Virus record (IMG/VR): IMGVR_UViG_3300036831_000092 | Location: 1 to 58,047 of that record | Source: a virus | Lineage: Duplodnaviria > Caudoviricetes | Strand: one strand, 5' to 3' | Length of the DNA stretch: 58,047 nt | Translations under genes and position numbers: made by a program | Shown: in pieces, positions 17,083 through 32,908 of the stretch | Layout: each line of letters begins with the position of its first letter | Position numbering within the stretch: position 1 is the stretch's first letter | Notes under the pieces: generated by a model | Seen by the model: the letters and a program-made list of their open reading frames with translations, nothing else | Databases searched by the model: none | Told to the model about the DNA's origin: nothing

Positions 17083-18678
17083 TCAGACATTGGCGACTGA
17101 CTCACTTTCTTCGCGGATACGTTTCCACTCCCCGAACGGGACGGCGAAGATGGTCTTTCCGTTCTCCACAAACGCGGTCTCGCGTCTGTACTGGCCCCAC
17201 TCCGCGGCAACGCGAAACGCCCTCTCGCTGCCGGGGTCTGCCTTGATCCCCATTAACCCCGCGCCGCCCGAAATCGGCATCAAGTTGGATATAGGGTCTG
17301 CGACAGCGTTGTGACCGACGACCGCATTCGCAGCGTCGTCGTTCGTCTGCCAGCCTTCATCTCGCTTACGCGCCTCGTTTGCGATCAAGAGAGTCTGAGT
17401 CTGCGCGTCGCGCAGGAGTTCCGCCGCGCGAAGTTCAGCGAACCTAAACTCCACCTTCGCCGCTATCCCCTGCACCTGAAGCGCAATCGTCAGCAGGTTT
17501 TCCAGCAACGTTTCGCACTGATGCTGAAGCGCCTTTATACCAGCGGCGTGAATCTCCCACTGACGATTCGCGTTTGCTTCCGAAACGCCGTCAGTCGTCG
17601 CCATCAGAAGAGGCATGGTCTTCAAAGCTCTAGTGGACATCCGCTCAAGAGCTTTGATAAGGCCGTCAACGACGCCCAGGCCCGAAGCGTTCATTGTTCC
17701 CACGGGCTGTTTCGAGACCTCCACCGCATCGGGGTGAACGAATGCGTCATCCGGCTTTAACTGCCCGTACATCCGTCCGATGTCGTTAAAGGCGCTCTCA
17801 AGCCACGCTTTTCGGGACGCCGGGTCAGTGGCGTCCGCATCCGGCATCATCTTTACCAGCTCCTCAAACTTCACCGTAATGTCAGGCCGGGGCCAGCCCT
17901 GCTGCTGAACCACACGCTTGATGTCGTAGAGCATCGCCAGAAGAAAGAGCGTTGTAAACAGCGCAGGACTGGCGAGCGCACGCCCGTAAGGTTTGCCAGG
18001 CAAAGGCTGGAAAGGGATGTAAGCGACCGTCGGGCGGTCGAGAGGAACCAGCTCGCCCAACTGCTGCTGGCACAGCCGCCACACGACGCCGCGGGCCGCA
18101 TCCTCAGCACGGAGAAACTTCAGGTGGGCGGGATTGGGAGTTGCTATCTCAAGCGGGAGCCTGCCGTCTTCGCTCAAGACGAGTTCGGCGAAAAATCCAG
18201 TACTCAGGAATGGCTGAATGAAAAGAGAATTTATTACCACGTCCGTAGGAAGGGCGTTCGGCGGCGCGTAAGGGCCATGCAGGGACGAGAGAAAGCCGTC
18301 GAGCGCTTCCTGCGCGGCCTTGTCCTGCTTACCAGTACCCGGCTTTAAGGCTTTCGCAGTCCACCCTGGATTACACATCAAAAGATGGTCGTGGAGTGCA
18401 CGTGAGACTTCGGGACTCAAGTCGGCGAGTAAGGAGAGTAATTTTGCAGGAGGGAATCTGCGGAGCGTCTGCGCGTCGAACTCCACGCCCCGAATGGACT
18501 CGTCCGGGCTGAAGGCGAAGAGGTTGCCGAAGACGATCTGATTCGGATCGTCCATTGTAACGCGCCCGCCCGCAATTGCACGGCCTACGCCGACACCCGA
18601 TGCGACCGGCGCAGTCTGGGCACGTCTTTCTTCGGACTGCCAAAAGGAGCGCCAGATTTTCAGCGGATTGATTTCCAT
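17083..18678 (-). CDS. Portal protein
   Basis: 531 aa right after TerL; 'PYGRAL', 'VEFRFAE'. Confidence 0.8.
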   Translation of the reverse strand: MEINPLKIWRSFWQSEERRAQTAPVASGVGVGRAIAGGRVTMDDPNQIVFGNLFAFSPDESIRGVEFDAQTLRRFPPAKLLSLLADLSPEVSRALHDHLLMCNPGWTAKALKPGTGKQDKAAQEALDGFLSSLHGPYAPPNALPTDVVINSLFIQPFLSTGFFAELVLSEDGRLPLEIATPNPAHLKFLRAEDAARGVVWRLCQQQLGELVPLDRPTVAYIPFQPLPGKPYGRALASPALFTTLFLLAMLYDIKRVVQQQGWPRPDITVKFEELVKMMPDADATDPASRKAWLESAFNDIGRMYGQLKPDDAFVHPDAVEVSKQPVGTMNASGLGVVDGLIKALERMSTRALKTMPLLMATTDGVSEANANRQWEIHAAGIKALQHQCETLLENLLTIALQVQGIAAKVEFRFAELRAAELLRDAQTQTLLIANEARKRDEGWQTNDDAANAVVGHNAVADPISNLMPISGGAGLMGIKADPGSERAFRVAAEWGQYRRETAFVENGKTIFAVPFGEWKRIREESESVANV

Positions 18679-18679
18679 T

Positions 18680-20110
18680 TTATTCCATCTGCGTTTTGAC
18701 TGCCGAGAGCATGAGGCCGACGCCAGCTAAAGCGTTGCTCTTACCCGCCATCACGCCATATCTGAAATCATCGTATGCGTCATCTCCACCCTGCCCGTCC
18801 TCATCAACGTCAACCTTCAGCACGTCCTCCGGCCTGTGCGGGTCGTGCTGAAGCATGGGCAGGCACTCTATCAGCCGCGAGCACCTGTCAGAGATTTCGA
18901 CGCGCGGCTCGATGCCGTTATCCACATCGCCCAGGAGCATCAGAACTTCTGCTGCCCCGTTGACTCTATCCATGTTCGCGGGGGTAAGAATTATCCCCTG
19001 CTCTTTGTATTGATCCGCAATCGTCTTCCCCTTCTCGTCACCTTTATGGGCGAACACATCCACACCAGCGACGAACTCCCTAAGACGCGAAATGTTGACG
19101 CCGTGGCGCGTGAGCATCGCCTTTATTCCTTCGGCGTTCTGTGGAACTAGCTTCTTCGCCGCGTGGTACTCGTCAACAACTCTCTTTTTGCCGTCGAACT
19201 CGGTATACAGGTGGCAGCTCGTCGGGTGCGTGAAGCCGTAATCTAGGGAGGCCCACACGGGCCAGTGTGCGGGTATGTCGTCCAATTCCTTGTGGGCACG
19301 GACGTGTGCTTCGTGCCGCCACGTCGAGAAGAACTGTCCCGCCGCGATGTCCCAATCGCCGTCCCGCCATGCTGCCCGCTGCCAGCCCTTCAGGTTGTTA
19401 AGTGTCTGCTCGTACTCGTCATTGATGAAACGATTGTCCTGATAGTTGGCAAAGATGAACTTAGTGGCCGTCTCCGTCTCTTCCCGGTAAGGCTTAATGA
19501 ACTTCGTCTTCAGGTAGGCGTGTGCCACCCCTCCGGGATTGAACGTGTAATAGACGCGGGGGCGGAAGCCTTTAGACGAGCGGTTGCGCGTGCAGATGAG
19601 GTCAATCTTTTTCTCCGACAACTGCTCCGCCTGCTCTATCAGAATGATGTCGTATTCGAGTGAGAGATAGTTATCAATATCTTTCTCGTATTGGTAAGAG
19701 CCGACGATGATTCTTGATTCGTTCGGGTAATGAAGGACGTTATTTTTGAAATCATGGTTGACATGACGGAGCACGTTCCGACGCAAGTCTTCAAGGGATT
19801 CTTTCGCGTACTTGCCGACCTTTCGCAGGAAAAGAACTTTTAAATCTGGAAATCTCTGGCAGTCGTCAATTCCGATCTGGCCGAACGCGCAATGAGTCTT
19901 TCCACCAGCCAACGCCCCGCCGTAGCCGATATGCGTAGCCTCTCCCGGCTCGTCCGCACGGCGGCAGGCAGCGTGGAAAAGCATCTGCTTCGGCTGCGGC
20001 ACGTAGCCCGCCCGAAGGAATCTCTCAAGCGAGTCCTTCGGCACGCCCGCCGAGCGCGCGGTCTCGGCCATCCTCGTGACGGCCTCAGTCTGTCTCGCTG
20101 GCTGCGCCAT
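18680..20110 (-). CDS. terL: Terminase large subunit
   Basis: PQPKQ, GYGGALAGGKT Walker A, TFNPGG, LDYGF, DDAYDDFRY nuclease motifs. Confidence 0.95.
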   Translation of the reverse strand: MAQPARQTEAVTRMAETARSAGVPKDSLERFLRAGYVPQPKQMLFHAACRRADEPGEATHIGYGGALAGGKTHCAFGQIGIDDCQRFPDLKVLFLRKVGKYAKESLEDLRRNVLRHVNHDFKNNVLHYPNESRIIVGSYQYEKDIDNYLSLEYDIILIEQAEQLSEKKIDLICTRNRSSKGFRPRVYYTFNPGGVAHAYLKTKFIKPYREETETATKFIFANYQDNRFINDEYEQTLNNLKGWQRAAWRDGDWDIAAGQFFSTWRHEAHVRAHKELDDIPAHWPVWASLDYGFTHPTSCHLYTEFDGKKRVVDEYHAAKKLVPQNAEGIKAMLTRHGVNISRLREFVAGVDVFAHKGDEKGKTIADQYKEQGIILTPANMDRVNGAAEVLMLLGDVDNGIEPRVEISDRCSRLIECLPMLQHDPHRPEDVLKVDVDEDGQGGDDAYDDFRYGVMAGKSNALAGVGLMLSAVKTQME

Positions 20111-20582
20111 AGATTTTTTCGATTGCGTCCGCGACAGGCTGCATCAGGGGAGTGCCATCGGGGTTTGAATGTTCCACACGTTCTCTGTATTTCTCCGGTC
20201 TGTGCGCCTTTAGCAAAAGCGTCATCAGCGAATCGCTGTACTCGGTGATGACCTTCTCCGCCACCTTATCCCCCTGAAACATGATCGGCTCATGCCTCGT
20301 CACTCCGTCTCTGGCCCGCCGCCACGCCGCGGCCTCCAAAGAATCCACCGCCTCTTCTAATGCTTCGTCCCACTGACGGCTGAACTCTTCCGAGGCATCG
20401 CGCGCCTTGTAAGCCGTCGTCCTGTTAATTCCCGCCGCCTGACACGACGCCCGCACGTTCCCCGAATTTCTGAGGGCGTTCAAAAACAACGGCCTCCAAA
20501 TATCTGCCCTCACGCGCTTTTCCCGCGCGCGTTGGGGTGTCGAAAGTGTCGAATCCGGTTTTTCGTTAGATTTATTGCTCAT
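20085..20582 (-). CDS. terS: Terminase small subunit
   Basis: HTH 'GNVRASCQAAGINRTTAY' and 'YSDSLMTLLLKAHRPEKYRE'. Confidence 0.88.
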   Translation of the reverse strand: MSNKSNEKPDSTLSTPQRAREKRVRADIWRPLFLNALRNSGNVRASCQAAGINRTTAYKARDASEEFSRQWDEALEEAVDSLEAAAWRRARDGVTRHEPIMFQGDKVAEKVITEYSDSLMTLLLKAHRPEKYRERVEHSNPDGTPLMQPVADAIEKIYGAASETD

Positions 20583-20629
20583 TTCTTCGTTAAATCATTG
20601 ATTTTGTTGGACTTGCAAGCATTTTTCTG

Positions 20630-20658
20630 TTGACAAGCATCACTCATCTGACTATACT
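20630..20658 (+). promoter_or_regulatory. Consensus sigma70 promoter of antisense cassette A
   Basis: TTGACA-N17-TATACT. Confidence 0.8.
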
Positions 20659-20705
20659 TAACTTGTTGATGGCGTTGAACTTGCAGGTTTCCCGGGAGAA
20701 TAAAA

Positions 20706-20909
20706 GTGATGACAAACCAAAACGAGCGAGTCCAAACGATAGTGACCGAACGCACGGTCATCGAAGTGACACAATTGGGCCGAGGCTGCACAGGCAAAAT
20801 CGTTGACAGCACTTCCCCGCTCTTCGGGCAGGAAGTGTTCGGCGACCGCTGGTTCGTCATCGCGGAACTAGACTCCCGCGCGAAGGCGGAGCAGGGGGTG
20901 GCACTGTGA
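20706..20909 (+). CDS. Small hypothetical protein
   Basis: Downstream of promoter, GGAG RBS. Confidence 0.5.
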   Translation: MMTNQNERVQTIVTERTVIEVTQLGRGCTGKIVDSTSPLFGQEVFGDRWFVIAELDSRAKAEQGVAL

Positions 20910-21094
20910 AAATAATCAGCACCGCCAGCGGCGACGTGACGCTCAGGGAGTATGTGCGGGCGTGGCGCGCGGTCAAAGCCGCACCTTCCGGCACGGCCTT
21001 CAAGTCCTCTCTTTGCGGCTGGTGGCCGGCGTCGCGCGAAGAGATTCTGCGGCAGTTCATCGCCGGCCTCCACGACAGAATCAATAAACGCTGA
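20906..21094 (+). CDS. Small hypothetical protein
   Basis: GTGA-coupled to upstream ORF. Confidence 0.55.
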   Translation: MKIISTASGDVTLREYVRAWRAVKAAPSGTAFKSSLCGWWPASREEILRQFIAGLHDRINKR

Positions 21095-21109
21095 AGAAAG
21101 GAACGAACG

Positions 21110-21940
21110 ATGAACAGACCAACTCTCAACCCCGACGGCCACTCCGTCAAAGGATGCTCCATCATTTACGCCCCAGCCGGTCAAGCCGGGGAATATGCCA
21201 AGCTCGCGGCAAATCCCTACAGAGGGTGCGGGCACGAATGCCTCTACTGCTACGTGCCGCTCGTCCTCAAGATGGATCGCAAACTCTTCGACGCCGGAGC
21301 AGTCCCGCGCGACGGGTTCGTTGGCAAACTCAGGAAGGACGCCGCGAAATACCGGGCACTCGGAATCACCGAGCAGGTCATGCTTTCCTTCACGACCGAC
21401 CCATATCATCCCGGCGACACGGCCTTGACTCGGCAGACGATTGAGACGCTGATCGAATACGGCCTCTCGTTCTGCACGCTCACCAAAGGCGGGACGCGCG
21501 CGCTCAGAGACATTGGCCTCTTCAGGCCAGAGCGCGACGCCTTCGCCTCGACGTTGACGAGTCTCGACGATTCCGTTTCGCTCAAGTGGGAGCGAAACGC
21601 CGCGCTGCCCGCAGACAGGATTGCGGCTCTGAGGGCTTTTCACGAACGAGGCATCTACACGTGGGTTTCGCTCGAACCCGTGTACGACACCGAGGCGACG
21701 CTGGAGATAATCAGAGCATGTGCCCCATTCGTGAATCTCTTCAAGTTGGGGCGCATCAACTACAATCCCATGACGAAGAGGATTGACTGGAAAGACTTCA
21801 CGGCGCGCGCCCTGGACGTGCTGAACGAGTGCGGCGCAGAGCACTACATCAAGCGCGACCTTCAGCCCTACCTTCCCGAAGAATACGAGAACGTGAAGTA
21901 CAGAAATCAATTCGCGCCCCTTTCGAGCCGAGCCGCGTAG
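21110..21940 (+). CDS. Radical SAM protein (SplB-like)
   Basis: NPYRGCGHECLYCY (CxxxCxxC), TDPY, LTK, SLEP motifs. Confidence 0.88.
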   Translation: MNRPTLNPDGHSVKGCSIIYAPAGQAGEYAKLAANPYRGCGHECLYCYVPLVLKMDRKLFDAGAVPRDGFVGKLRKDAAKYRALGITEQVMLSFTTDPYHPGDTALTRQTIETLIEYGLSFCTLTKGGTRALRDIGLFRPERDAFASTLTSLDDSVSLKWERNAALPADRIAALRAFHERGIYTWVSLEPVYDTEATLEIIRACAPFVNLFKLGRINYNPMTKRIDWKDFTARALDVLNECGAEHYIKRDLQPYLPEEYENVKYRNQFAPLSSRAA

Positions 21941-22512
21941 TGGGCCATGTTCTGCTGAAAACCGCAGTAGTAGCCCCGAAAGCCTCTCAGGTCATAACCG
22001 ACCTGAGAGGCTTTCGCCTTTAGAAGTTCCTCACAGACACCCAAATAGCACCCGTACAGATCGTTCCCGTATGACGCGACCAGCGGCGCGAGTTGAGCTA
22101 TCTTCCATGCCGTCTTCATCTTTATATTCACTCTCAGGCCGTCGTTGACGACTATCCAAAGCTTCTCGGCCTTCGGCCTCTCGCTGAACAGGAAAGCATC
22201 AATCACATCCCACGGGCTGCCGTATGGATCACAGTCAAGCAGATTAACCGGCAGGTGTGCGCCCGCACCTTCCGCAATAGAGCGCGTAGAATCACATTCA
22301 TAGACACTCCACGTTTGGCGTTGGCGCGAAAGAAGCGACGCTTTTTCTGGGTTCTTCTCAAAAACCACCCCCTGCTTAATATCCGAGTAGCACGCCTGAT
22401 AAATCTTCCCCGCGCCGCCGTGCGTCTCTAGTACGACGGGCTGCGGGATTTCCTTCAGTGCCGAAAGTCTCAGCGCGACCTTGCGGTTAAATGTTTGGTT
22501 GTCCTTTTTCAC
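21907..22512 (-). CDS. Class I SAM methyltransferase-like protein (Trm1/TcmP-like)
   Basis: VLETHGGAG motif I; DCDPYGSP motif IV. Confidence 0.7.
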   Translation of the reverse strand: MKKDNQTFNRKVALRLSALKEIPQPVVLETHGGAGKIYQACYSDIKQGVVFEKNPEKASLLSRQRQTWSVYECDSTRSIAEGAGAHLPVNLLDCDPYGSPWDVIDAFLFSERPKAEKLWIVVNDGLRVNIKMKTAWKIAQLAPLVASYGNDLYGCYLGVCEELLKAKASQVGYDLRGFRGYYCGFQQNMAHYAARLERGAN

Positions 22513-23128
22513 TCAGGTAAAAAGTTGCCAGTTCCGCCAACGCGTCTCCGCGATTTTCATATCCCGTCTCGCGCAAAGCTCTTTCTATGACTGCCAGATT
22601 GTGAACCGCCACAACGACTTTCACGTCCGGCATCTTCTTTCTCGTCAGCCGCTCGCCCTCTTTTTCACCACCACCGTTCTCCGAAAAAGTCTCTGCCTCT
22701 ACGGAGAGCGTTTCGAGCATCAGAGACACGGCGTCATCTTCAGCCGATACGTCGCGCAACAAAATTTCAAGCGTTTCCGAGTCATGTACTGCCATCGCAC
22801 TTAGCGGGTCGTAAGTAGCAAGTAACAGCTTTTCCTCTTCCTCGCTCAAGTCCACCTGTACGCAGGGGATCGGCGTCAACTCGTCAGCCGACAGTGCTTC
22901 CTCAATTCGCAAGTGGCCGTCCAGGAGATTTCCCGTGCGGACGTTCTCAAGGACTGCACCAGCAAAACCTATTTCCGCGAGTACGCCCCTGAAAGCTTCG
23001 CGTTGCGCGTTCGGGTGACGACGGAAATTCAGGGCGTTCGCGGTGAATTGGTTGGCAGGTTTCTCTGTGAAGCCCACAACCCTATTGCGCCACGCTGAGC
23101 CACCAACTTTTCGCGTCGTCTTTTTCAC
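22487..23128 (-). CDS. ParB/Srx N-terminal domain protein
   Basis: 'NFRRHP', 'TGNLLDGHLR'. Confidence 0.8.
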   Translation of the reverse strand: MKKTTRKVGGSAWRNRVVGFTEKPANQFTANALNFRRHPNAQREAFRGVLAEIGFAGAVLENVRTGNLLDGHLRIEEALSADELTPIPCVQVDLSEEEEKLLLATYDPLSAMAVHDSETLEILLRDVSAEDDAVSLMLETLSVEAETFSENGGGEKEGERLTRKKMPDVKVVVAVHNLAVIERALRETGYENRGDALAELATFYLSEKGQPNI

Positions 23129-23258
23129 TTCTTTGCCTCTCGCTCCCTCTGCTTCTTCTCAATCATCTTCACCAGCTCTTTATCCGACACCCTGGCAATC
23201 CTCAACCGTCCGTAGCGAGGTTGTTTGGCCTTTTGTTTGGCGCGCAGCTGCTTGGCGT

Positions 23259-23759
23259 TCATCGCTCTCTACGCTCCTGGGTGACAGAAGTGTGAATCCC
23301 ATCCGGCAAGGCTAATTGGGCAAGCACGCGGTCTTCCTCGCCGCACAAATCATCGTAGTATTTGAATTCAAAAAGGGGCGGCTCAATTTTCGCGACGCTC
23401 ATAAGTGCGCGGAGTTTGCCGATGTGCGCTTGCAATTCCTGAACGTGCGCCAAGGCGTTATGCTTGCTGGCACGCACCAGAACCAACTGTTGCGCGGCGT
23501 AGTTGATGCGCTCTCTGAGAAAAGCACTCTCCCGGTCTTCGCTTCTGGCACGCCTGGAATTGACCTCTCGCAAGAGGCCGGGGAGCGCCGCGAAAAAGGC
23601 GGCCAGGACAGCAGAGACGAGTCCGATGGCCGCCACGTCAAGCGTGCGGTCTCCGATGAATTCCCCAATGAAAAACGTCATCCCTCCCGCGAAAGATGCT
23701 GCTTTCAGGAGCGGCGCGACCTTTAAGCTAACGGGGATATTTTGCACTCTCGCGGCCAT
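23259..23759 (-). CDS. Membrane protein with coiled coil (lysis-related?)
   Basis: Two hydrophobic segments at N-terminus. Confidence 0.5.
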   Translation of the reverse strand: MAARVQNIPVSLKVAPLLKAASFAGGMTFFIGEFIGDRTLDVAAIGLVSAVLAAFFAALPGLLREVNSRRARSEDRESAFLRERINYAAQQLVLVRASKHNALAHVQELQAHIGKLRALMSVAKIEPPLFEFKYYDDLCGEEDRVLAQLALPDGIHTSVTQERRER

Positions 23760-23951
23760 TCTCAGCCCTTGACATTCTCTTGCGCCCGCTTCTCTTCCTG
23801 CTCAGCCTCGGGCTTCACCTCGCCTCTTAGCTCGTCTTCGTCCAGTGGACGAACGCGCGGTGTTTCTTTCTCTTCAGTCACTCTTACCCTCCACAGACTT
23901 CCCGTATACGAAATGGTGTGCGAAAATAGTTGACGAACGTGAATAATTCTC

Positions 23952-23980
23952 TTGACAGAAATCGTTTACGAGCGTAAACT
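23952..23980 (+). promoter_or_regulatory. Promoter of cassette B with overlapping palindrome
   Basis: TTGACA-N17-TAAACT; GTTTACG-AG-CGTAAAC dyad over -10. Confidence 0.7.
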
Positions 23981-24027
23981 GATTCCACGCTCGATTGAGC
24001 GAATTTGAAGAGAAGAGGAAAAAGACA

Positions 24028-24378
24028 ATGGCGAGCAAATTTTTCAACACCCCGCACCAAACGACAAGACCGCAAGACTTGACGCGCGAAGACGAAACAA
24101 ACCGACGTGTCAAAGAGATTGCTGACGAGATAGTTGAACTGCGCCGCAAGGTGCGTGGTTTGAAGTTGGACGAACTCACAGAGCGCAATCCTTACGGGTT
24201 GGCGCTTGAGGACGAAACCTACAAAGCAGCGCGAGAGCTTGATTACGAGCGCGAGAACGTCGCAATCGCCGCACACGACGTTGACGAGGCGCTTTCTACT
24301 CTGAGCCAAATGCTGTGCGCTTTCGCGCGCGGCAGAGAACTCGAATTGAGCCTTAAAGAGAAAGAGGAGCAATCGTGA
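24028..24378 (+). CDS. Coiled-coil hypothetical protein
   Basis: AGAGG RBS; ORF track. Confidence 0.6.
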   Translation: MASKFFNTPHQTTRPQDLTREDETNRRVKEIADEIVELRRKVRGLKLDELTERNPYGLALEDETYKAARELDYERENVAIAAHDVDEALSTLSQMLCAFARGRELELSLKEKEEQS

Positions 24379-24581
24379 AAAAAGAAGACCTGATGACGGT
24401 CGGCATGGTCGCGCGAGAGCTAGGAATCTCGCGCGAACGTGTCCATCACAAGCGGCGCGCGGGACACTTCCCCTCAGCTTTTCAGCTTGAGGACGGGACG
24501 TGGTTAATAGACAGGAAAGACCTCGCGCAAAATCGCCAGCCCAATCCGGTTGGGCGTCCGAAGAAAGAGGCAAAGAAGTGA
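24375..24581 (+). CDS. HTH DNA-binding protein
   Basis: 'MTVGMVARELGISRERV..GTWLI..GRPKK'. Confidence 0.75.
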   Translation: MKKEDLMTVGMVARELGISRERVHHKRRAGHFPSAFQLEDGTWLIDRKDLAQNRQPNPVGRPKKEAKK

Positions 24582-24702
24582 CCTGCGAAGCCTGCGGCGG
24601 CAGATTGAAGCTCGACAAGCAAGTGTCCGACGGCGACCCGAACGGCACGACCGTGGAACAATACGAGTGCGAGGACTGCGGCGATTTATCGGTGGAGGAC
24701 TC

Positions 24703-24951
24703 GTGACCTACGACCCCAAACCCGTCGAAGGACACCGCCTCGCCCTCACCCGCCGCGTCGTCCACCTGATCCGGCTCTTCGAGGCGGGCGACACGCTCTC
24801 GCAGTCTGAGCTGGCCCGCGCCTTCGAGGTCTCGCCCAAGACAGTTAATCGTTATTTGAAAGTCCTGCAAGAGTTCTACCCGATCAATCGTATCAAGCGC
24901 GGGCGCGAGGTCTTCTTCAGGCTTGAACGCCCGCGCAAAAGGCGCAAATGA
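24703..24951 (+). CDS. Winged HTH (HTH_11-like) protein
   Basis: 'ELARAFEVSPKTVNRYLKVL'; GGAGG RBS. Confidence 0.7.
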   Translation: MTYDPKPVEGHRLALTRRVVHLIRLFEAGDTLSQSELARAFEVSPKTVNRYLKVLQEFYPINRIKRGREVFFRLERPRKRRK

Positions 24952-25107
24952 GATTCTGGGCCTCACCCTCTTATTACGCGCCCGCCGCATTCTCCTTTCG
25001 TAAAAATAAGTTTCTCCCCGCGAAAATAACTGTTGACAAGTTGGTTTCTTTGTGCGAAACTCTTTCTTGTCAGGGCGAAAGCCAAACTTGAAAGAGGAGA
25101 AACGAAA

Positions 25108-25386
25108 ATGGCTAAGAAAGATTGGAATCAGGACGGCCCCGGCGCGGTTCACGTTTCGGATGGTACGGAAGGCTACTGGACAGACGATTTCGACCCCGAA
25201 ACCGAGTCTCTTAAGAGTCTCGCAGACGACTTCGCGGACGGCTACAACTTCAACGACTGGACGTGCGGCGCTGACGAAATCGCTCTTTCGGTCACGGTCA
25301 CGAATACGACGACGGGCGAGAGCGAGAGTTTTAATTATCGCGGCTCCTACTTCGGCATGAACGGAGGCGCGGAAGATGAGAATTAA
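25108..25386 (+). CDS. Acidic hypothetical protein (cassette C)
   Basis: GAGGAG RBS; TTGACA at 25033 upstream. Confidence 0.6.
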   Translation: MAKKDWNQDGPGAVHVSDGTEGYWTDDFDPETESLKSLADDFADGYNFNDWTCGADEIALSVTVTNTTTGESESFNYRGSYFGMNGGAEDEN

Positions 25387-25579
25387 GACGGCTGAAACCG
25401 TAGCCGACGAGCTGGGGGTAACGCCCCAGCTCGTCAATAAGCTGATACGGAAATTGGGCATCACGCGCGCCGACTGCCCCTGTTGCGGGGCAAAAGAACG
25501 GGGCATCACTGATGCGGACGTGAAGAAAATCGAAAAGAGAAAGACCAGCAAAGGCCCGACGAAAGGAGCAAAGGAGTGA
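25376..25579 (+). CDS. HTH protein with CPCC motif
   Basis: 'VADELGVTPQLVNKLIRKLG'. Confidence 0.6.
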   Translation: MRIKTAETVADELGVTPQLVNKLIRKLGITRADCPCCGAKERGITDADVKKIEKRKTSKGPTKGAKE

Positions 25580-25806
25580 TAAACAAAGAACAATTTATCG
25601 AGGGCGAGGAGCGCGCGGAATGGTTCGGTCATAGACACGCGCACTCGTATGTTTTCCACAACGGCGCGTGGACGCGCGGACGCTGTATCCTGTACGGCGA
25701 CGGCACTTGCGATTCCATTTGGAATAGCAAAGAGTTTGCCGCCGCCGCGCCTCTCGCGCAGACGGCAGAGGAGTGGGAACGGGAAGTGCGGGCGCAACGC
25801 GCCTAA
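25576..25806 (+). CDS. Hypothetical protein
   Basis: Coupled start, AAGGAG RBS. Confidence 0.5.
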   Translation: MINKEQFIEGEERAEWFGHRHAHSYVFHNGAWTRGRCILYGDGTCDSIWNSKEFAAAAPLAQTAEEWEREVRAQRA

Positions 25807-25988
25807 AAAACAACCCATCTTCGTGAGCCTCACCCTCACTCTTCTACCCTTCCGCGTCCGCCGCCAAATCAGCCAATAGCTGAATCATGTTCGCCTTCTC
25901 CGTCTCACCAGCCTTCGCCGTCAACTCTTCATCCGACAAGCCGGAGGAAGCCTTGATTCTCGCGTAGAGATTCACCGCCCCGCTCTGC

Positions 25989-26186
25989 TTATCCCTGACT
26001 CGTCGTGTCCGCGTGCGGCAGAGGCGGCGCAACGTCACCCGCCGGATGCTGCTCTGCCGGGTAGAGTTGATTGAGCGCGTCTCTCAAGGGCACGAGGTAC
26101 TGCTTCCATGCCGCGACGTGCTGCGGGTATCGTCCAGACAGAAGTGAGAGCACGAGAGCGACGACCATAGAAATGTAGATTTGCAT
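25989..26186 (-). CDS. Small membrane-anchored late protein
   Basis: N-terminal hydrophobic helix; GGAAGG RBS. Confidence 0.5.
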   Translation of the reverse strand: MQIYISMVVALVLSLLSGRYPQHVAAWKQYLVPLRDALNQLYPAEQHPAGDVAPPLPHADTTSQG

Positions 26187-26196
26187 AACCTTCCTT

Positions 26197-26427
26197 TCAA
26201 GTGTTGATGTTCGTTTCCTTCGACTGCCCGACCGTAGCCTGCGAAGACTTCAGCAACCCGCCAAGCACGCCGATCATCACGAGCAGTATGTTTTCGAGGA
26301 ACTTGGTATCGAGTCCTTTAATCGCCAATGTTATGTAAGCGACCAAAAGGAGGAAGCAGAAGGCCGCCGCGATGTAGCGATCTTTGATGGAAAGGGTTGC
26401 CGAGTCGCCAGCCATCACCTTCACCAC
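26197..26427 (-). CDS. Holin-like protein
   Basis: Two TM segments; first gene of late operon. Confidence 0.55.
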   Translation of the reverse strand: MVKVMAGDSATLSIKDRYIAAAFCFLLLVAYITLAIKGLDTKFLENILLVMIGVLGGLLKSSQATVGQSKETNINT

Positions 26428-26432
26428 AAACG

Positions 26433-26475
26433 AAAAAAGCCCGCCCCGGAAGTCTTTCGACTTCGGAAGCGAGCT
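26433..26475 (-). terminator. Intrinsic terminator ahead of late operon
   Basis: Stem with GAAA loop followed by TTTTTT. Confidence 0.7.
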
Positions 26476-26594
26476 GGCCCCGAAGGGCGGACACTCGATA
26501 TTAGTTAGTAAAGAACAACCTCAAATCAGAATAAGCCGAAGCGGGCGATTAATCGGCTTTTCGTTCCCGCGACAGGTAATCCCGGCACTGTCGC

Positions 26595-26813
26595 TTATTC
26601 TGATTTCAAATTGTAACGACGTTTGATGTCGTCAATCATCCGCTGATGTTTCAAGATAACTTGCTGGCAGATGCCGATCAACCCGCGCGCGAACCTCTGC
26701 TCTTCCTCGGTTGGCGCGCGCTCTTCGGACTCTATTGTACTAGAGTCCGAGGGTTTGGGGGAAAGAATTTTGCGCTCGTCGGTCACAATTCTGTAGTTAT
26801 ACCTCTGTCGCAT
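26595..26813 (-). CDS. Hypothetical protein (possible late regulator)
   Basis: Last early ORF before late leader. Confidence 0.4.
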   Translation of the reverse strand: MRQRYNYRIVTDERKILSPKPSDSSTIESEERAPTEEEQRFARGLIGICQQVILKHQRMIDDIKRRYNLKSE

Positions 26814-27195
26814 TACGAACGCGACACTCGTATCCGCACTTTATGCAATAGCGAAACACTACCTCCGCATCACAACATTCCGACCGAAGTTTCGTAAGCT
26901 TGGTCAACTTCTCATCAAATCCCGGAAAGCGATTCCCCGGCTTCCAATCATTCGCCTTTAGCTCAATGAATCGCATCTCTGCGTCTGGAAAATGTTTCTT
27001 GATGGCAGCGATGATGCGCGCTTCCGCATCTTTATCGTCCGTGTCAATCACAGCGCAATATGATTCTTCATCGCGTCCGGTTTTCTTCGTATCCGTTCTG
27101 CCTCTGATTCCAGAACACCATGAGTCGAAGGGCGGTTTTGTGCATCCCTCGTCGGCGTAATTCCCTGACCACCAACTAACCCAAAATCGCGCCAT
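26797..27195 (-). CDS. Hypothetical phage protein
   Basis: ORF track; AAAGG RBS. Confidence 0.55.
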   Translation of the reverse strand: MARFWVSWWSGNYADEGCTKPPFDSWCSGIRGRTDTKKTGRDEESYCAVIDTDDKDAEARIIAAIKKHFPDAEMRFIELKANDWKPGNRFPGFDEKLTKLTKLRSECCDAEVVFRYCIKCGYECRVRNATEV

Positions 27196-27225
27196 GACCT
27201 TTTCCTTTCGCTCGCATGTTCCTGC

Positions 27226-27537
27226 CTATCCGAAAAGTTGCTCCACCAAAGAACGGGCAGCCTCAATCGTCATGGGCTTATAATCTTTGACGTTCACATA
27301 GAACGCCGCCTCTCGTTCGGCCAACCTTGAGAACACCCGCTCCAACAGCGCGCACTTGTCACACAACAGGTATGAGCCGGCGGCGCAGTTTTCAAGATAG
27401 ATGCCCTGCACGATCTCAAGGGCTTCGCGCACAGCTTCTAGCTCTTTGTCCTCGCACCTCTCGCACGGATCGGACTCCGTAAATCCCAACCCCTCGCCGC
27501 AGACGGAGCAGGGCTTTCGTTGGTAGCCGTCAGCCAT
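27226..27537 (-). CDS. Cys-rich hypothetical protein
   Basis: GGAG RBS; CxxC pairs. Confidence 0.5.
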   Translation of the reverse strand: MADGYQRKPCSVCGEGLGFTESDPCERCEDKELEAVREALEIVQGIYLENCAAGSYLLCDKCALLERVFSRLAEREAAFYVNVKDYKPMTIEAARSLVEQLFG

Positions 27538-27581
27538 CTTGTGTCTCCACCTCCTTCGGCTCCGGTACGCTGAACAGGACG

Positions 27582-27821
27582 CTAGATTCGCTCGTGTTCA
27601 GGAATCTCAAAATACTTTTGCGAATGTCCGATATGCCAACGGTTACAGAATCCGCATTGATATTTATCGAATGGCTCACCTGTTTTCTTCTGCATTGAGA
27701 GTCGCGCCTTCTCTGCCGCTTCAGCGTTTGCGTGTGGTAATTTACCTATGCAACTTCTCGCCTCGTCACGCACAGCGTAATCGTATTCATCGTGATAGGT
27801 TCTAAACTTGACGGTTGCCAT
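27582..27821 (-). CDS. Zn-finger hypothetical protein
   Basis: C.GK..YQCGFCNRWHIGH motif. Confidence 0.6.
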   Translation of the reverse strand: MATVKFRTYHDEYDYAVRDEARSCIGKLPHANAEAAEKARLSMQKKTGEPFDKYQCGFCNRWHIGHSQKYFEIPEHERI

Positions 27822-27943
27822 AGCACTTACTTCCCTCGCTTCCTCTCCGCCAATACTTCCGCCACAGCCTCCGCCCTGCATATACCCTTAGCGCAGTCCG
27901 GACAGACCGAGCCTAACTTGGCGTTAGCATCCGATTGACCACG

Positions 27944-28273
27944 TTAGTTCTTAGCCTCGCCTTCAAGGAATCCCGACCGCATTGCACCTTCAACAGTCAT
28001 CGGAATATACCTACGGGGTCTGGCCTTTATCGGCACGACGGAAGGATGATTACCCTTCGCGTTTTCGCTCGTCAGAAGCGAGTCCATTCGACGCTTCCAA
28101 CGCCCAAGTTCGCCGTCGGGGTCGGGGTCAATCGGTTCTTCATTCGGGTGCAGTTCGTTCCAATACTTCGCGTCCACGAACATCTGCTTGATGTCATTCG
28201 AGATGCGCGCGGCATCGTTGATTATCTTCTGCCGTTCAGCGTCCATCTGCTCTAACCTCCCTCGCGCCTTCAT
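27944..28273 (-). CDS. Hypothetical protein
   Basis: ATGA-coupled to methylase. Confidence 0.5.
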   Translation of the reverse strand: MKARGRLEQMDAERQKIINDAARISNDIKQMFVDAKYWNELHPNEEPIDPDPDGELGRWKRRMDSLLTSENAKGNHPSVVPIKARPRRYIPMTVEGAMRSGFLEGEAKN

Positions 28274-28980
28274 CTCCCCTGACTGCCCTCCGCGAATAGG
28301 GGCGTCTCTATCTCGCGGCGGTGGAAGCGGGGGATGTCAACCGCTATTCCCTGCGCCCTTTGAATCCTCGCCTCCGCGACGCGGCAGTAGCCTTCGTCAA
28401 TCTCAACACCGATAAACTCATGTCCCTCAAGCACGGCGGCCACACCCGTAGAACCGCTGCCCATATATGGGTCGAGAATTGTTGAACGAGGCGGCAACCT
28501 CAATCGCCTGATAATCCAACGTATGAGTGCCACTGGTTTCTGCGTCGGATGGTAGTGTTCGTTAGTTTCTGAGGCGCGCGCGAAACCCGACCAGCAGTGC
28601 CCAAAGATGTAAACGCCGTGGCCGCGTGAGTACCACGCCACCTCTGCGTCGGAGAGAATCGTCCCACCTTTTGTCGTCCGCTTGTCCCAGACAAACCAGC
28701 TCCCGCATGGAAGGCGGTCGCTGAAGCAGTTGGCCCCGAAAAGCACGGCGCGGGGGAAGACGAGCCAAGGCGACGGGTCGAAGGGTTCGGCGTCTCCGCT
28801 AATCGCGTCGTGAGTCTTTCGCAGGTGTTCGTAACCTTTACCGCCCGAAAATCTTGTGTAATCTGTATCGTGGCCGACGCCGTATGGCGGGTCTGTCACG
28901 CACGCATCAACGACGACGCCCCGCTCGATAAGCCTCGGCATCAATGCCAAACAATCGTCGTTGTGAATCTCGTACTTCAT
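28270..28980 (-). CDS. Orphan N6A/N4C DNA methyltransferase (beta class)
   Basis: TDPPYG, HPTQKP, DPYMGSGSTG motifs. Confidence 0.93.
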   Translation of the reverse strand: MKYEIHNDDCLALMPRLIERGVVVDACVTDPPYGVGHDTDYTRFSGGKGYEHLRKTHDAISGDAEPFDPSPWLVFPRAVLFGANCFSDRLPCGSWFVWDKRTTKGGTILSDAEVAWYSRGHGVYIFGHCWSGFARASETNEHYHPTQKPVALIRWIIRRLRLPPRSTILDPYMGSGSTGVAAVLEGHEFIGVEIDEGYCRVAEARIQRAQGIAVDIPRFHRREIETPLFAEGSQGR

Positions 28981-29137
28981 ACAGTGGGCGGATTCTCAAA
29001 TCCGCCACCCCTTAACTAACGCTTGCCGGTTCTTCTCCTCATCTCCCCAAATACTTATCCAAACATCTCCCCCTGCCTCGGAGCGTGTGAGAGCAGCTCA
29101 TTTCGTAACTCACCCAGGTCAAGCATGACCAATTACC

Positions 29138-29491
29138 TCAGTGCCAGTAGAGGGCTACCTTTGTTTTCGGCGGCAGATATTGCAGGTATGCCCAAATCGC
29201 CGATTCAATGTAGGATGGACTTTGCTCTAAAGGTATCTTGCAAAGGTCGCCTGCCAGCACGAACTCGACGGGTTCGCCGTATGGCGTCTCTTGAGTCTCC
29301 CCGTAGCAAGTCCCGTCGAACCCTTCTTGCCTTCCGCTAAAACTGTGAAAGATTTCAGGCACGGGCATCGAGCGCAACTTCCGTATCCTGTCGTGCAGGT
29401 CATAATTAGCGCCCAGTTCAAGAATGGTAAAAGAGAACGCCGAGTCTCCCCGGTCGTAATCGAACGGTAAGAGCCTCAGTTGGACACTCAT
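29138..29491 (-). CDS. Hypothetical protein
   Basis: ATGA-coupled ORF. Confidence 0.55.
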   Translation of the reverse strand: MSVQLRLLPFDYDRGDSAFSFTILELGANYDLHDRIRKLRSMPVPEIFHSFSGRQEGFDGTCYGETQETPYGEPVEFVLAGDLCKIPLEQSPSYIESAIWAYLQYLPPKTKVALYWH

Positions 29492-30261
29492 ATCTTTCTC
29501 AGCACCCCCTCGCAGAGTTTCGGCTCGCCCTCGCCACGGTTAAGCAGGTCGCTGCAAGTCTGGCCTTCCTCGAAACCGAAATAGGTTGATACTCGCCATC
29601 TGCACGCCGGGTTCGTGCAGATGAGCGGCGTTCCTTTCGGCTTCGGTTCGGGCACGTTCCTCGCGGGCCGGGGCGAGCCGATCTTCGACATGGCCTCGCG
29701 CAGCAGTTCGGTCTGACGCCTGACCTCCTCGCGTCTCTCATCTTCGGAGCGTGCGTACTCTTCCTCTTCACGTAGCGTCATTCCCTCGTGCGAACAGCCC
29801 GGCCTCACAGAACCGTCCGGCATCCTTCGGAAACCCGTCCCGAAGCAAGCTTGGCAGGCGTGGACGGCGTTCTCTGGTAGCAGCCGGGTCTTGTTCAACT
29901 CGGCGTGCATCGCCCTAACCCTGACCCATTCCGTAGCCAAGTCGTTGGCAGAGAGCGGCCCCAACTCTTCACCCCGCGCTCTGCGCTCAAGGCGGGTTTG
30001 AATCGCTGCCCGGTAACAGGCGTCGAACTGTTCTGCGGGAACCCCGGCGACGTGGAGGACTTCGAGCCACGCGGCGACCATCTGCGCGTGGTCAGCGTCG
30101 GGTAGGGGCTGCCAGCCCTGCGACGTTCGGTAGCGGTCGAGAATCTGGCCCATCGTCCTCGCCGCCGCCTCCGTCGCCCCCCCGTGCCCATGAGTAGTCC
30201 CGGTTGTTGATCGTGTCGGCGCGAGTCCGTTTTGCGGGTTGCGGTTGATTTCGTTTGTCAT
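29488..30261 (-). CDS. Replication partner (helicase loader/inhibitor-like) with Zn motifs
   Basis: Follows initiator; 'AAWLEVL' helix; CxxCxGTG. Confidence 0.55.
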   Translation of the reverse strand: MTNEINRNPQNGLAPTRSTTGTTHGHGGATEAAARTMGQILDRYRTSQGWQPLPDADHAQMVAAWLEVLHVAGVPAEQFDACYRAAIQTRLERRARGEELGPLSANDLATEWVRVRAMHAELNKTRLLPENAVHACQACFGTGFRRMPDGSVRPGCSHEGMTLREEEEYARSEDERREEVRRQTELLREAMSKIGSPRPARNVPEPKPKGTPLICTNPACRWRVSTYFGFEEGQTCSDLLNRGEGEPKLCEGVLRKI

Positions 30262-31027
30262 TTCCGTTTCCCTTCGCCCTGGCTATCTTTTCGAGCCGCC
30301 CCATGCGCTCCGCGTTTTTGAAAATGAACTGAATCGAGTTGTTGAATTTCCTATCGGGCCAGTCGTCCAAAGCGCACCCGTCTATCACTTTTTTGCAGTA
30401 GGCGACCCCCTTTTCGCCGACCGCGCGGTTGAGCGTTCCCCTGGCCGCTGAGTCAAGCGGGACAGTCTCCACCGCCGCGCAGTAGTGCGCGTGAACCTCC
30501 CGGATTTCCGCCTCCCGTTCCGGCGAGAGGTCGGGCAACCTGCGCGGTTGCGGCGTGTGTATGGCTTTTTGCTGGTTAATTGGGCTGGTTAATTGGGCTG
30601 GTTCAGCCTTTATATGGGACTTGCTATTTTCGCAACTTTGACTTGCTGTTTTCGCAACTTTGACTTGCTGTTTTCGCAACTTTTGCGGCGGGCGTGACTT
30701 GCTATTTTCGCAACTTTGACTTGCTATTTTCGCAACTTCACTCACCAATTTCTGCGCCCCTTCTGTGTACTCCTCAATGCCTTTCAGGAGGTAAGTAACG
30801 CCCCCGTGGAGCAATATCCAGCCCTCTGCTATCAACTCTTTTCGGAGCCGCGTCAGGTAGGTGTAATCGCGCTTCAAATCCCGCGCTGCCGTTCCGAGTG
30901 AGGCTGTACACGTCGGGTTGTCGCGCCCCCCGAATTTGCAGTAGTAGCAGAACAGCACGTAGGCAGACGTACTGATTTCGTGAGAGTCCAGTATGGCCCT
31001 GTCAGCCTGAAACATCAGTTCTCCCAC
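30092..31027 (-). CDS. Replication initiator (lambda O-like)
   Basis: N-terminal wHTH; internal iteron array. Confidence 0.75.
   Translation of the reverse strand: MGELMFQADRAILDSHEISTSAYVLFCYYCKFGGRDNPTCTASLGTAARDLKRDYTYLTRLRKELIAEGWILLHGGVTYLLKGIEEYTEGAQKLVSEVAKIASQSCENSKSRPPQKLRKQQVKVAKTASQSCENSKSHIKAEPAQLTSPINQQKAIHTPQPRRLPDLSPEREAEIREVHAHYCAAVETVPLDSAARGTLNRAVGEKGVAYCKKVIDGCALDDWPDRKFNNSIQFIFKNAERMGRLEKIARAKGNGNDKRNQPQPAKRTRADTINNRDYSWARGGDGGGGEDDGPDSRPLPNVAGLAAPTRR
30618..30739. repeat. Five 22-bp iterons (phage origin)
   Basis: GACTTGCT(A/G)TTTTCGCAACTTT at 30618, 30640, 30662, 30696, 30718 (last ends in C); adjacent 13-bp CTGGTTAATTGGG repeat. Confidence 0.88.
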
Positions 31028-31566
31028 CCCACGTCAAGCACGTAGAACTCTTCGGCGACCTTCCGCCCCGCCGCCAGCCCGTCGCAGTAAGAAAGTGACT
31101 CCTTGAGATCGGACGCGCGTCGGCCCGTGTAGAGTTCCGTCTTATCGAAACCGTGAATGAAGCCAATAACCCAGTAGTGATCTACACCTAAGATTGACGC
31201 GAAATCAGCGATGGGGTTGAAGTGTGAAGGCAGACCATTGAGGAGCGGCGCGAGCGGGCAGCAATGCTTTTGAGTCTGATACGTGCCGGACAAAGCTCCC
31301 CACTCGGTCTCGTATCGCTTCGATCTTTCGTTGTACCTCTTGCCTAAATTCTCGCGCGTGGGGTTGACTGTCTTCACCCCGAAATGGCAGCGGACGAGCA
31401 CGCCCCCTTGTGTCTGCCAGTCGGCGCAGGCGGCAATGATGCGCCCTATTAAATCCTCGTCCGGGATTGAAGAGACGACGGCCTGCTCGCCCTCGTACCA
31501 GTCGAAGAAGGGCGCGAAGTCTCCCGCGCCTGTTTTCGATTTGCGCGCGAGCTGATGACGGCTCAC
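31015..31566 (-). CDS. Hypothetical protein
   Basis: Coupled ORF in early operon. Confidence 0.55.
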   Translation of the reverse strand: MSRHQLARKSKTGAGDFAPFFDWYEGEQAVVSSIPDEDLIGRIIAACADWQTQGGVLVRCHFGVKTVNPTRENLGKRYNERSKRYETEWGALSGTYQTQKHCCPLAPLLNGLPSHFNPIADFASILGVDHYWVIGFIHGFDKTELYTGRRASDLKESLSYCDGLAAGRKVAEEFYVLDVGWEN

Positions 31567-32300
31567 TTGACCTCCATGTCGGAGGCCATGCGCCTCAGTT
31601 CGGCGAGCGCCATGTCTTTAGGCTCTTTGCCCTCATAGTTCTTTCTGAGGAAGCCCGCGATCTCCGCGTCCGTTTTGTAGAGCTCGTTCAACTCGCGGTA
31701 GATGGCCGCCGCCAGGTAGCTGCGCTCCTTCTCATCATCGGGGCCAAGTGCGGAAGCGTCCTCTTTCTTCCGAGCAAGTAGCTTTTCCAGAGACGGGATG
31801 ACCGACCTGCGTAGCTCATCATCCGACTTCTTCGCCGTCCTTGACAGCGCCTCCGCGGTCTTCGCCACGTCGTAGCCTAGAAGCGTGCAAAGCTCCTGCA
31901 CGCGATCTGTCAACTTCCGCCGCTCAGGGCCGTAAGATTTCTCCTGCGGCACGGGGCGCGGCCCCGGAGACACGTCCTCACGGCTCGCTATCCCTTCTTT
32001 GACCTCGTAGCCGAGGAAGGCGAGCGCGCGGCCCACCGCAGCCGTCTCGACTTTTTCAAGGGTGGAGTTGCCCCGCCCGCCCATCCCGCCCGACTCGTCG
32101 GCCATGCCCGAAGAAGTGGGCACGCCGGAGTCGTTCCCGTCGAGGTAGATTTCGCACCTGACCGTCAAAGGCTCGTCCTTGACGACGACCGTGGTGAGCC
32201 TTGCCGTCGGGTGGTCAAGGCGGAACTTCTCGACTCTGGTGTGGACGCCGACGTATGAGTCCAGGTTTCTGTTTCCGCCCCGTTGTGGCTGTGCGCTCAT
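31563..32300 (-). CDS. Single-strand annealing protein (Rad52/Sak-like)
   Basis: 'YVGVHTRVEKFR' and 'LEKVETAAVGRALAFLG'. Confidence 0.7.
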   Translation of the reverse strand: MSAQPQRGGNRNLDSYVGVHTRVEKFRLDHPTARLTTVVVKDEPLTVRCEIYLDGNDSGVPTSSGMADESGGMGGRGNSTLEKVETAAVGRALAFLGYEVKEGIASREDVSPGPRPVPQEKSYGPERRKLTDRVQELCTLLGYDVAKTAEALSRTAKKSDDELRRSVIPSLEKLLARKKEDASALGPDDEKERSYLAAAIYRELNELYKTDAEIAGFLRKNYEGKEPKDMALAELRRMASDMEVK

Positions 32301-32660: not shown

Positions 32661-32908
32661 ACTTCCTCTCACGCGCGAACACGACTCCAAACACGCCTTG
32701 CCCTTCTGTTCCTCTCGTACTCGGCCAGTGCAAACTCCATCTCTTCCCATGTCCTCGTATGGAAGAGGTGGGAGCGGCCTAAGAGGTATGCAAATATGGA
32801 ACGGTAGGCGAGCCAGCCCGAAGGGGCGATGATGATGTATGGTTTCATAGGTAAAACCTCTGCATTAGTCAGCGCGTGGCCCCCTTCGTCTCAACTCCGC
32901 TCTCCGTG

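Follow-up and report, generated by a model that had tools for sequence, protein, structure and literature searches.

A 651-codon stop-free frame antisense to two inverted phage cassettes, a putative translated spacer cistron

Introduction

A shadow open reading frame (ORF) is a long ORF that lies antisense and in register to a real gene and is explained by codon usage. Phage morons are extra genes that carry their own promoter and terminator and sit between late genes. Ribosome shielding from Rho is known for ordinary genes or short leader ORFs, and the suppression of antisense transcription by Rho was reportedly described by Peters et al. in 2012. The accessible portion of PMC13323073 states that Rho terminates untranslated RNA with a preference for pyrimidine-rich antisense RNA, and that a closely trailing ribosome holds off Rho where transcription and translation are coupled. 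The statistics of shadow ORFs are treated in the accessible portion of PMC3454372, and that of PMC8850804 reports translated antisense ORFs of 957 and 1536 nucleotides (nt) in Pseudomonas aeruginosa. Here, we analysed the virus record IMGVR_UViG_3300036831_000092 (Duplodnaviria; Caudoviricetes) over its entire 58,047 nt, hereafter the window, and found that a minus-strand ORF of 651 codons, bridge ORF 2, runs without an internal stop across seven plus-strand genes that form two inverted cassettes, B and C, within an array of minus-strand genes. A shorter frame, bridge ORF 1, spans a further inverted cassette, A.

Bridge ORF 2 resembles shadow ORFs in being antisense and without homologues, in lying in register with four of its seven sense genes, and in having a composition set by those genes (first codon position GC-rich). 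Unlike shadow ORFs, it extends over seven genes that occupy all three phases, together with three spacers and two promoter regions; the codons missing along it are unexplained by sense codon usage, and its ends are operon-style junctions. Like the antisense overlapping genes of P. aeruginosa, it is long, possibly translated and apparently selected to stay open; each of those genes sits inside a single annotated gene and is argued to have a functional protein product, whereas bridge ORF 2 covers multi-gene cassettes, links the flanking cistrons and has a product that looks like a by-product. The mechanism that we propose is identical to ribosome protection from Rho, with a trailing ribosome that would shield a nascent pyrimidine-rich antisense RNA. 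The cassettes are similar to morons in that A and B each open with a strong sigma-70-like promoter (20630-20658 and 23952-23980), contain small accessory genes and are located close to the terminase, between genes of the operon; they differ in running opposite to the operon, in having no terminator-like sites beyond those of shuffled sequence, and in being spanned by an operon-strand ORF. In full-text literature searches, we found neither a kilobase-scale ORF kept without coding purpose across inverted genes nor an account of antisense ORFs that cover several genes and serve read-through. We regard the bridge as a variation on antisense ORFs and on ribosome shielding from Rho, and our confidence in the mechanism is moderate.

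An open minus-strand frame joined to its neighbours

The frame of bridge ORF 2 is open from stop to stop between 23884 and 25885 and has no internal stop, compared with 24 stops in each of its two sister minus frames. Seven plus-strand genes lie beneath it, four of which are in register and three out of register, the latter occupying both other phases, and it also crosses three intergenic spacers and two promoter regions. An initial annotation of the window, made by a model from the sequence alone, had described such a 651-codon frame across cassettes B and C with seven genes in all three frames beneath it, and this description is borne out. It had also placed two promoters under the frame. 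The promoter of cassette B passes our promoter scan (10/12), while that of cassette C (25033-25061) is visible by eye and was not reported by the scan.

Both ends of the frame are as the initial annotation described them. At the upstream end, the TAG (25846-25844) of a 64-amino-acid (aa) minus-strand gene is followed by 4 nt (AAGA) and then by the GTG of the bridge at 25839, and a Shine-Dalgarno-like GGAAGGG in the last codons of that gene ends 7 nt before the GTG. At the downstream end, the bridge closes with GGAGGG-TAA (23886-23884), followed by 2 nt (GA) and a GTG at 23881. The two junctions had been said to be alike; the strings quoted in support are present, and each contains a Shine-Dalgarno-like run, GGAAGGG or GGAGGG. 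The GTG at 23881 opens a 39-codon acidic ORF that in turn ends 2 nt before the ATG of the next gene at 23759, with a junction (AAGGGC-TGA-GA-ATG) like those of the bridge. Because the pattern of a Shine-Dalgarno-like run, a stop, 2-4 nt and a start is shared, bridge ORF 2 is joined to its neighbours as the neighbours are joined to one another. It thus shows the geometry of coupled cistrons, lying on the strand of its neighbours with spacers of 4 nt and 2 nt, and it has the start codon and Shine-Dalgarno-like run that an antisense overlapping gene would have. We did not give much weight to the closeness of the junctions by itself, since the sequence outside the cassette is rich in stops.

Codon choice beneath the bridge

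The codons TTA, CTA and TCA, hereafter target codons, are read as stops in an in-register antisense frame. Within the four genes that are in register with bridge ORF 2, only these three codons could close its frame. They account for 2.45% of the 8078 codons in a set of 25 ordinary phage genes, none of which is free of them, and the longest antisense open run across those genes is 211 codons. In the in-register genes of cassettes B and C, we found no target codon in 362 codons, against 7.4 expected from phage usage given the amino acids (P 6e-4); the rate per phage gene ranges from 0.5 to 4.1%, so that Poisson figures such as this one are too small and the true figures are perhaps tenfold less extreme, though still small. 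Control codons in the same genes were close to expectation (GTA+ATA+CGA, 4 vs 7.1; CCA+ACA+GCA+GGA, 13 vs 13.7; T-ending codons, 25 vs 21.8), and the GC content at third codon positions (GC3) was 0.68 as compared with 0.67 for the phage. The out-of-register genes contain 4 target codons, with 2.9 expected.

Resampling gave a consistent picture. When the seven genes were resampled synonymously with phage codon usage, the frame remained stop-free in 1 of 30000 trials, and in 0 of 20000 in a second run; shuffling of the cassette's own synonymous codons left it stop-free in 18 of 30000. For the in-register genes alone, the figure was 12/20000, and for the intergenic spacers alone 402/20000, so that the signal sits in these two parts of the region. 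The length of the frame is therefore not explained by sense codon usage, as it would be for a shadow ORF, and the frame is not in register with a single sense gene, since seven genes, three phases and three spacers are involved. Codon bias alone had been named in the initial annotation as the explanation that would undo its idea. Such bias fails to account for the open frame: only the target codons are depleted, and only in the in-register genes, with normal controls. These results suggest that the frame of bridge ORF 2 has been kept open on purpose.

Nature of the predicted product

Bridge ORF 2 belongs to no Pfam or PHROG family, and a search of 5.8 billion proteins for homologues of 358-1140 aa found none. 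A HMMER search against 1.84 billion representatives returned one match, P0002 (297 aa, E 4.5e-16), which aligns with residues 346-641 at 32% identity and agrees best opposite the HTH_17 gene and the promoter region of cassette B. P0002, encoded on a contig of 1454 nt, is likewise an antisense-frame ORF, from a relative of cassette B; it is therefore no evidence for a protein family. All that it appears to show is that one relative has the antisense frame open over about 890 nt, and this is subject to ascertainment bias. The exact sequences of both bridges are absent from a collection of 15 billion proteins. The composition log-odds of bridge ORF 2 is -25.8, within the range of wrong-frame translations, and that of bridge ORF 1 is -11.1, while the sense genes score from +5 to +23. 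Bridge ORF 2 thus shares with shadow ORFs the lack of homologues and a product that is not protein-like.

The genes beneath the bridge are of a different kind. Only HTH_17 (24375-24581) and HTH_11 and HTH_24 (24703-24951) were found above curated Pfam cut-offs, and no Pfam family was found for 24028-24378, 25108-25386 and 25576-25806, although these three are protein-like in composition. The stops and starts of the seven cassette genes overlap or abut. The proteins of 24028-24378 and 24375-24581 are present in the 15-billion-protein collection, as is that of the radical-SAM gene of cassette A, and the 116-aa protein of 24028-24378 matches only itself there. We found no relatives of cassettes B and C by using the 651-aa frame against viral contigs or the 5.8 billion proteins, the DNA of the region against phage records, or two of the sense proteins. 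None of the 31 terminase relatives carries these cassettes.

The cassette A bridge and a further open frame

Cassette A is spanned in the same manner. The start of bridge ORF 1 and the stop of the minus-strand gene 21907..22512 share 4 nt (TTGA); at the other end, 4 nt (ATGA) are common to the bridge stop and the ATG of terS, which encodes the small subunit of the terminase. These overlaps, too, have the geometry of coupled cistrons. The frame contains no internal stop, compared with 28 and 17 in the sister frames, and in resampling the frame was stop-free in 0 of 20000 trials. The radical-SAM gene beneath it (21110-21940; PF04055; phrog_13321, E 3.1e-19) has no target codon in 277 codons against 6.4 expected, and its control codons are normal. 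Both of the plus-strand cassette groups mapped in the 40-kb minus-strand array (60..40713) are thus fully spanned by an open minus-strand frame.

The initial annotation had offered the TPR frame as a third case. The frame of this 346-aa minus-strand ORF (35074..36114) is indeed open over a plus-strand ORF of 68 aa with a signal-peptide-like start (35750..35956); about 120 codons are open upstream of its protein-like part, and it overlaps the end of 36038..36850. We take up the resampling of this frame below, where the proposed role is weighed.

Recurrence in other phages

Because cassettes B and C are orphans, we used the radical-SAM gene for comparison with other phages. This gene (phrog_13321, function unknown) is widely conserved beside terS (loci L032-L218), and it is often convergent with a 201-aa protein without a family, the homologue of 21907..22512; hosts in the genome records of these loci include Acidobacteriota, Bradyrhizobium and Variovorax. 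We collected 78 viral, 80 metagenomic and 29 genomic loci, and called a cassette embedded when one to three plus-strand genes lay between minus-strand genes, and co-directional when at least five plus-strand genes lay in a row. In 18 convergent loci, target codons made up 13 of 694 leucine and serine codons of the radical-SAM gene and 52 of 463 in the homologue of 21907..22512. At GC3 0.55-0.80, the 38 embedded loci had 71 target codons among 1499 leucine and serine codons of the radical-SAM gene and 1173 among 7350 in the other, flanking genes (odds ratio 0.26), with 14 loci stop-free, while the 23 co-directional loci had 91 among 862 and 536 among 4886 (odds ratio 0.96), with 3 stop-free.

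We also compared observed with expected counts, using expectations per locus for loci with GC3 of at least 0.5 merged at 85% identity. The ratios in the embedded loci (32 clusters) were 0.30 for target codons, 0.52 for rare control codons and 0.81 for A-ending control codons, and the target codons were scarcer than the rare controls (P 0.003). In co-directional loci, the corresponding ratios were 0.82, 0.82 and 0.88. A census at GC 0.50-0.62, matched for size, showed an open frame across 9 of 25 embedded cassettes of 600-900 nt and 6 of 219 control segments; for lengths of at least 1300 nt, the figures were 3 of 33 and 2 of 998. The bridge stop lay within 8 nt of the next start in 7 of 20 embedded loci with an open frame, several of them with ATGA or TAATG overlaps, and several embedded open frames begin at an ATGA or GTGA overlap with the upstream stop.

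Locus L092, from a phage unrelated to that of the window, stands as the clearest independent candidate for a bridged cassette. There, a minus-strand ORF of 1314 codons (3046-6990) lies between minus-strand genes and over six plus-strand genes, which include DUF7699, HTH_31, DNA_pol3_beta_2 (sliding-clamp domain) and Radical_SAM genes. Five of the six share one frame, in register with the long ORF, and these contain no target codon in 1042 codons against 9.8 expected, while the controls lie above expectation (rare, 20 vs 13.0; A-ending, 60 vs 43.4).

We also noted a recurring string, (A/G)TGATGCTG, at the stop of the homologue of 21907..22512 in L149, L078, L185, L045, L048 and L092, in which the TGA of the upstream gene overlaps the ATG or GTG of the radical-SAM antisense frame. 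It may mark a coupling site, or arise because the C-terminus of one gene or the other is conserved. Alignment of neighbouring genes to the same frame was not enriched in embedded cassettes overall (about 13 of 46 pairs by hand count).

Proposed role and rival explanations

We propose that bridge ORF 2 is a translated spacer cistron that would keep ribosomes on the late mRNA and so let it escape Rho, an explanation to which we assign an even chance. Two moron-like groups of small regulator genes with their own sigma-70-type promoters would have been inserted, inverted, upstream of the terminase genes. A minus-strand transcript bound for the packaging and structural genes would then have to cross them antisense, as pyrimidine-rich RNA without any gene on its own strand; the purine fraction of the minus-strand RNA is 0.444 and 0.483 over the two bridges, as compared with 0.53-0.55 in ordinary minus-strand genes. 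Ribosomes finishing the upstream minus-strand gene would restart at the GTG 4 nt on, translate the stop-free frame across the cassettes and stop 2 nt short of the start codon that follows. Such translation would keep ribosomes behind the RNA polymerase, deny Rho a naked stretch for loading and hand the ribosomes to the next cistron, with the peptide as a by-product. Only translation reads frames, so stops purged where a gene is antisense to its neighbours would point to ribosomes on the operon strand. What the sequence shows is the open frame, its cistron-like junctions and the absence of the three target codons from the in-register sense genes; that the cassettes are transcribed through, that ribosomes translate the frame and that Rho is involved are inferences.

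A more general rule, to which we give somewhat less than an even chance, would be that where the hosts of phages are GC-rich and couple translation to transcription, inverted cassettes within operons keep one operon-strand frame stop-free, and do so at little cost, with their genes aligned in register and purged of TTA, CTA and TCA, and that ribosomes escort the RNA polymerase across them and evade Rho. If this holds, translation would serve as an antitermination device, with an antisense transcript disguised as sense, and synonymous codon choice would be constrained from the opposite strand by the act of translation and not by any protein. It would explain how accessory cassettes can be inserted in either orientation without polar damage, and would account for very long "shadow ORFs" that pipelines discard or miscall as giant hypothetical proteins. 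Orientation-dependent loss of the three codons would be a sequence-only marker of read-through across inverted genes, and the interplay of Rho, ribosome coupling and phage mosaicism would become directly testable. For annotators, the warning would be that an ORF of kilobase length opposite a number of small genes may be translated and yet be non-coding in the conventional sense. If our reading is wrong, bridge ORF 2 is still a useful benchmark, as a 651-codon ORF acceptable to length-based callers that is no protein gene.

A competing explanation, which we judge unlikely although it keeps appreciable weight, is that bridge ORF 2 is a non-functional shadow ORF, left open by luck and by the make-up of small, purine-rich regulator genes in codons and amino acids, picked post hoc from a very large scan, and with junctions near gene ends since stops are dense once the frame exits the cassette. 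With four of seven genes in register, just three rare codons need be missing, the out-of-register genes add little surprise, and the spread of target-codon rates among phage genes makes the Poisson figures too small; yet the in-register genes lack these codons completely at normal controls and GC3, while the out-of-register genes use them normally. The resampling results (1/30000 and 0/20000) are moreover to be multiplied by the 402/20000 of the intergenic parts, and the second cassette group of the window is spanned as well. The absence of a family and the junk-like composition fit a shadow ORF. Among the radical-SAM relatives, the in-register antisense frame is open over the whole match in 18 of 78, long shadows are also seen over ordinary genes in loci with high GC3, the majority of embedded cassettes elsewhere lack a spanning frame, and the set of 29 genomic loci is too small to replicate the pattern. 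Against this stand the repetition of the codon-specific pattern in L092 and the fact that, inside one gene family, the depletion tracks orientation, embedded versus co-directional. Stop-start overlaps (ATGA, TTGA, TAATG) and spacers of 2-4 nt are the usual signature of translational coupling, and the frame might be translated and kept open for reasons other than Rho: termination and reinitiation could feed a downstream cistron unable to initiate alone, or the late mRNA could be shielded from RNases or from pairing with the sense mRNAs of the cassettes, to which it would be fully complementary if both were expressed simultaneously. The same codon and junction evidence agrees with such roles, and the present evidence does not discriminate between protective roles; we nevertheless hold them improbable, as the downstream starts have Shine-Dalgarno-like runs of their own and so need not depend on coupling. 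That bridge ORF 2 is a genuine antisense overlapping gene for a 651-residue protein with its own function seems to us very improbable. Its length, start codon, Shine-Dalgarno-like run and operon-style junctions would suit such a gene, translated long antisense overlapping genes are reported in P. aeruginosa (accessible portion of PMC8850804), and P0002 matches part of it; but no family or homologue of comparable length was found in the searches described above, the sole match is another antisense-frame ORF that is best conserved at the cassette promoter region, the composition is that of wrong-frame translations, and two promoter regions as well as three intergenic spacers lie along the frame.

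Several observations weigh against a bridge that is kept open for escape from Rho. A junk peptide of 651 residues is costly to make. Taken alone, the out-of-register genes gave no significant result (stop-free in 5823 of 20000 trials with their own codons and 1592 of 20000 with phage usage), so that of the restricted null model put forward in the initial annotation only the intergenic part is supportive. With its peptide fixed, the TPR frame was stop-free in 16788 of 20000 trials and is not significant as a third bridge, real as the open frame is. A weak minus-strand promoter-like site (20976-20949, 9/12) lies within bridge ORF 1 upstream of terS, and read-through could therefore be unnecessary there. 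Two stretches of about 500 nt inside the minus-strand array, 15227-15740 and 16260-16758, have no convincing minus-strand ORF; since they are tolerated, continuous translation is no absolute need, or promoters lie inside them.

Points of the same kind come from the comparison with other phages. Rare control codons in the embedded loci stand at 0.52 beside 0.30 for the target codons, so that part of the depletion is general avoidance of rare codons and part is specific. Embedded loci with GC3 below 0.5 are not depleted (137 observed vs 170 expected), and 0 of 11 are stop-free. At GC 0.50-0.62, an open frame spans just 2 of the 38 embedded cassettes that lack a radical-SAM gene, namely cassettes B and C of the window themselves and one cassette of 300-600 nt. 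Bridges at four loci had to be set aside as independent support: that of L087 is not codon-specific and is accounted for by a general avoidance of rare codons (rare controls, 1 vs 10.1 expected), and those of L038, L059 and L109 are explained by high GC3. Among the non-duplicates of the small set of 29 genomic loci, target codons were 30 vs 50.9 expected in embedded loci (7 loci, two unusable) and 13 vs 23.3 in co-directional ones (6 loci). The gene calls of the loci come from a crude composition-based caller, and because the loci are related, pooled P values overstate their independence. The recurring design suggested in the initial annotation thus finds support in bridge ORF 1, L092 and the embedded radical-SAM genes, and none in the great majority of embedded cassettes at GC 0.50-0.62 that lack a radical-SAM gene; its observation of the frame is confirmed and its interpretation partly supported.

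Gene map of the window

The gene map was made with our own crude caller, which scores amino-acid composition and was also used for the loci. In this map, the minus strand holds every gene within 60..40713 apart from two plus-strand groups. The inverted cassettes lie directly upstream of the packaging genes and downstream of a ParB-like, methyltransferase-related gene and a DNA methylase. Plus-strand AT skew reverses its sign precisely over 24-26 kb, which matches plus-strand coding. Terminator-like sites within 20000-27000 were not above shuffle expectation (11 vs 9.3 expected), and the scan of this interval found no plus-strand terminator-like site at the cassette ends. The features of the region are collected in Table 1.

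Table 1. Features in and around the inverted cassettes of the window (target codons: TTA, CTA, TCA; HTH: helix-turn-helix).
Feature	Coordinates	Strand	Description
terL	18680..20110	-	packaging gene
terS	20085..20582	-	terminase small subunit; phrog_4044, E 6.9e-35; first gene downstream of bridge ORF 1
Bridge ORF 1	20579..21910	-	443 codons, TTG start; spans all of cassette A
Cassette A	20630..21940	+	genes 20706-20909, 20906-21094 and radical-SAM 21110-21940
Cassette A promoter-like site	20630-20658	+	TTGACA-17-TATACT, 11/12
Plus-strand group of cassette A (gene map, within 60..40713)	20706-21940	+
Plus-strand group of cassettes B and C (gene map, within 60..40713)	23995-25806	+
Next minus-strand gene	23259..23759	-	166 aa, no family
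39-codon acidic ORF	23762..23881	-	GTG start; read by eye from the sequence
Bridge ORF 2	23884..25839	-	651 codons, GTG start, TAA stop; proposed translated spacer cistron
Cassette B promoter-like site	23952..23980	+	TTGACA-17-TAAACT, 10/12 (promoter scan)
Cassette B gene 1	24028..24378	+	116 aa; in register; 0 target codons; no family above cut-off
Cassette B gene 2	24375..24581	+	68 aa; HTH_17/excisionase-like regulator (Pfam, PHROG); out of register; 3 target codons
Cassette B gene 3	24578..24706	+	42 aa; CxxC...CxxC zinc-ribbon-like (sub-threshold matches); out of register
Cassette B gene 4	24703..24951	+	82 aa; winged HTH (HTH_11, HTH_24); in register; 0 target codons
Possible cassette C promoter	25033..25061	+	TTGACA (25033-25038), 17 nt, GAAACT; TG two bases before; seen by eye only
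Cassette C gene 1	25108..25386	+	92 aa; in register; 0 target codons
Cassette C gene 2	25376..25579	+	67 aa; weak HTH (HTH_3 sub-threshold); out of register
Cassette C gene 3	25576..25806	+	76 aa; in register; 0 target codons
Upstream minus-strand gene	25844..26038	-	64 aa, no family; TAG at 25846-25844

On neither strand is there a convincing ORF in the intervals 15227-15740 and 16260-16758 of the structural array, which may hold promoters, RNAs or small genes. An Rfam scan of the window found two tRNAs only, tRNA-Val and tRNA-Asp at 51948-52134, and a 407-aa minus-strand ORF (52077..53300) overlaps the end of the tRNA-Asp. The GC content rises to 0.64-0.67 at 49-52 kb and falls to 0.45-0.50 past 52 kb, and the region 48000-58047 may comprise the phage edge together with foreign or host DNA. 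In the 64-67% GC part, a plus-strand ORF of 652 aa (49538-51496) is antisense to the minus-strand ORFs 48989..50185 and 50213..51454. By coordinate arithmetic, it is in register with both of them, and it is probably an ordinary high-GC shadow ORF.

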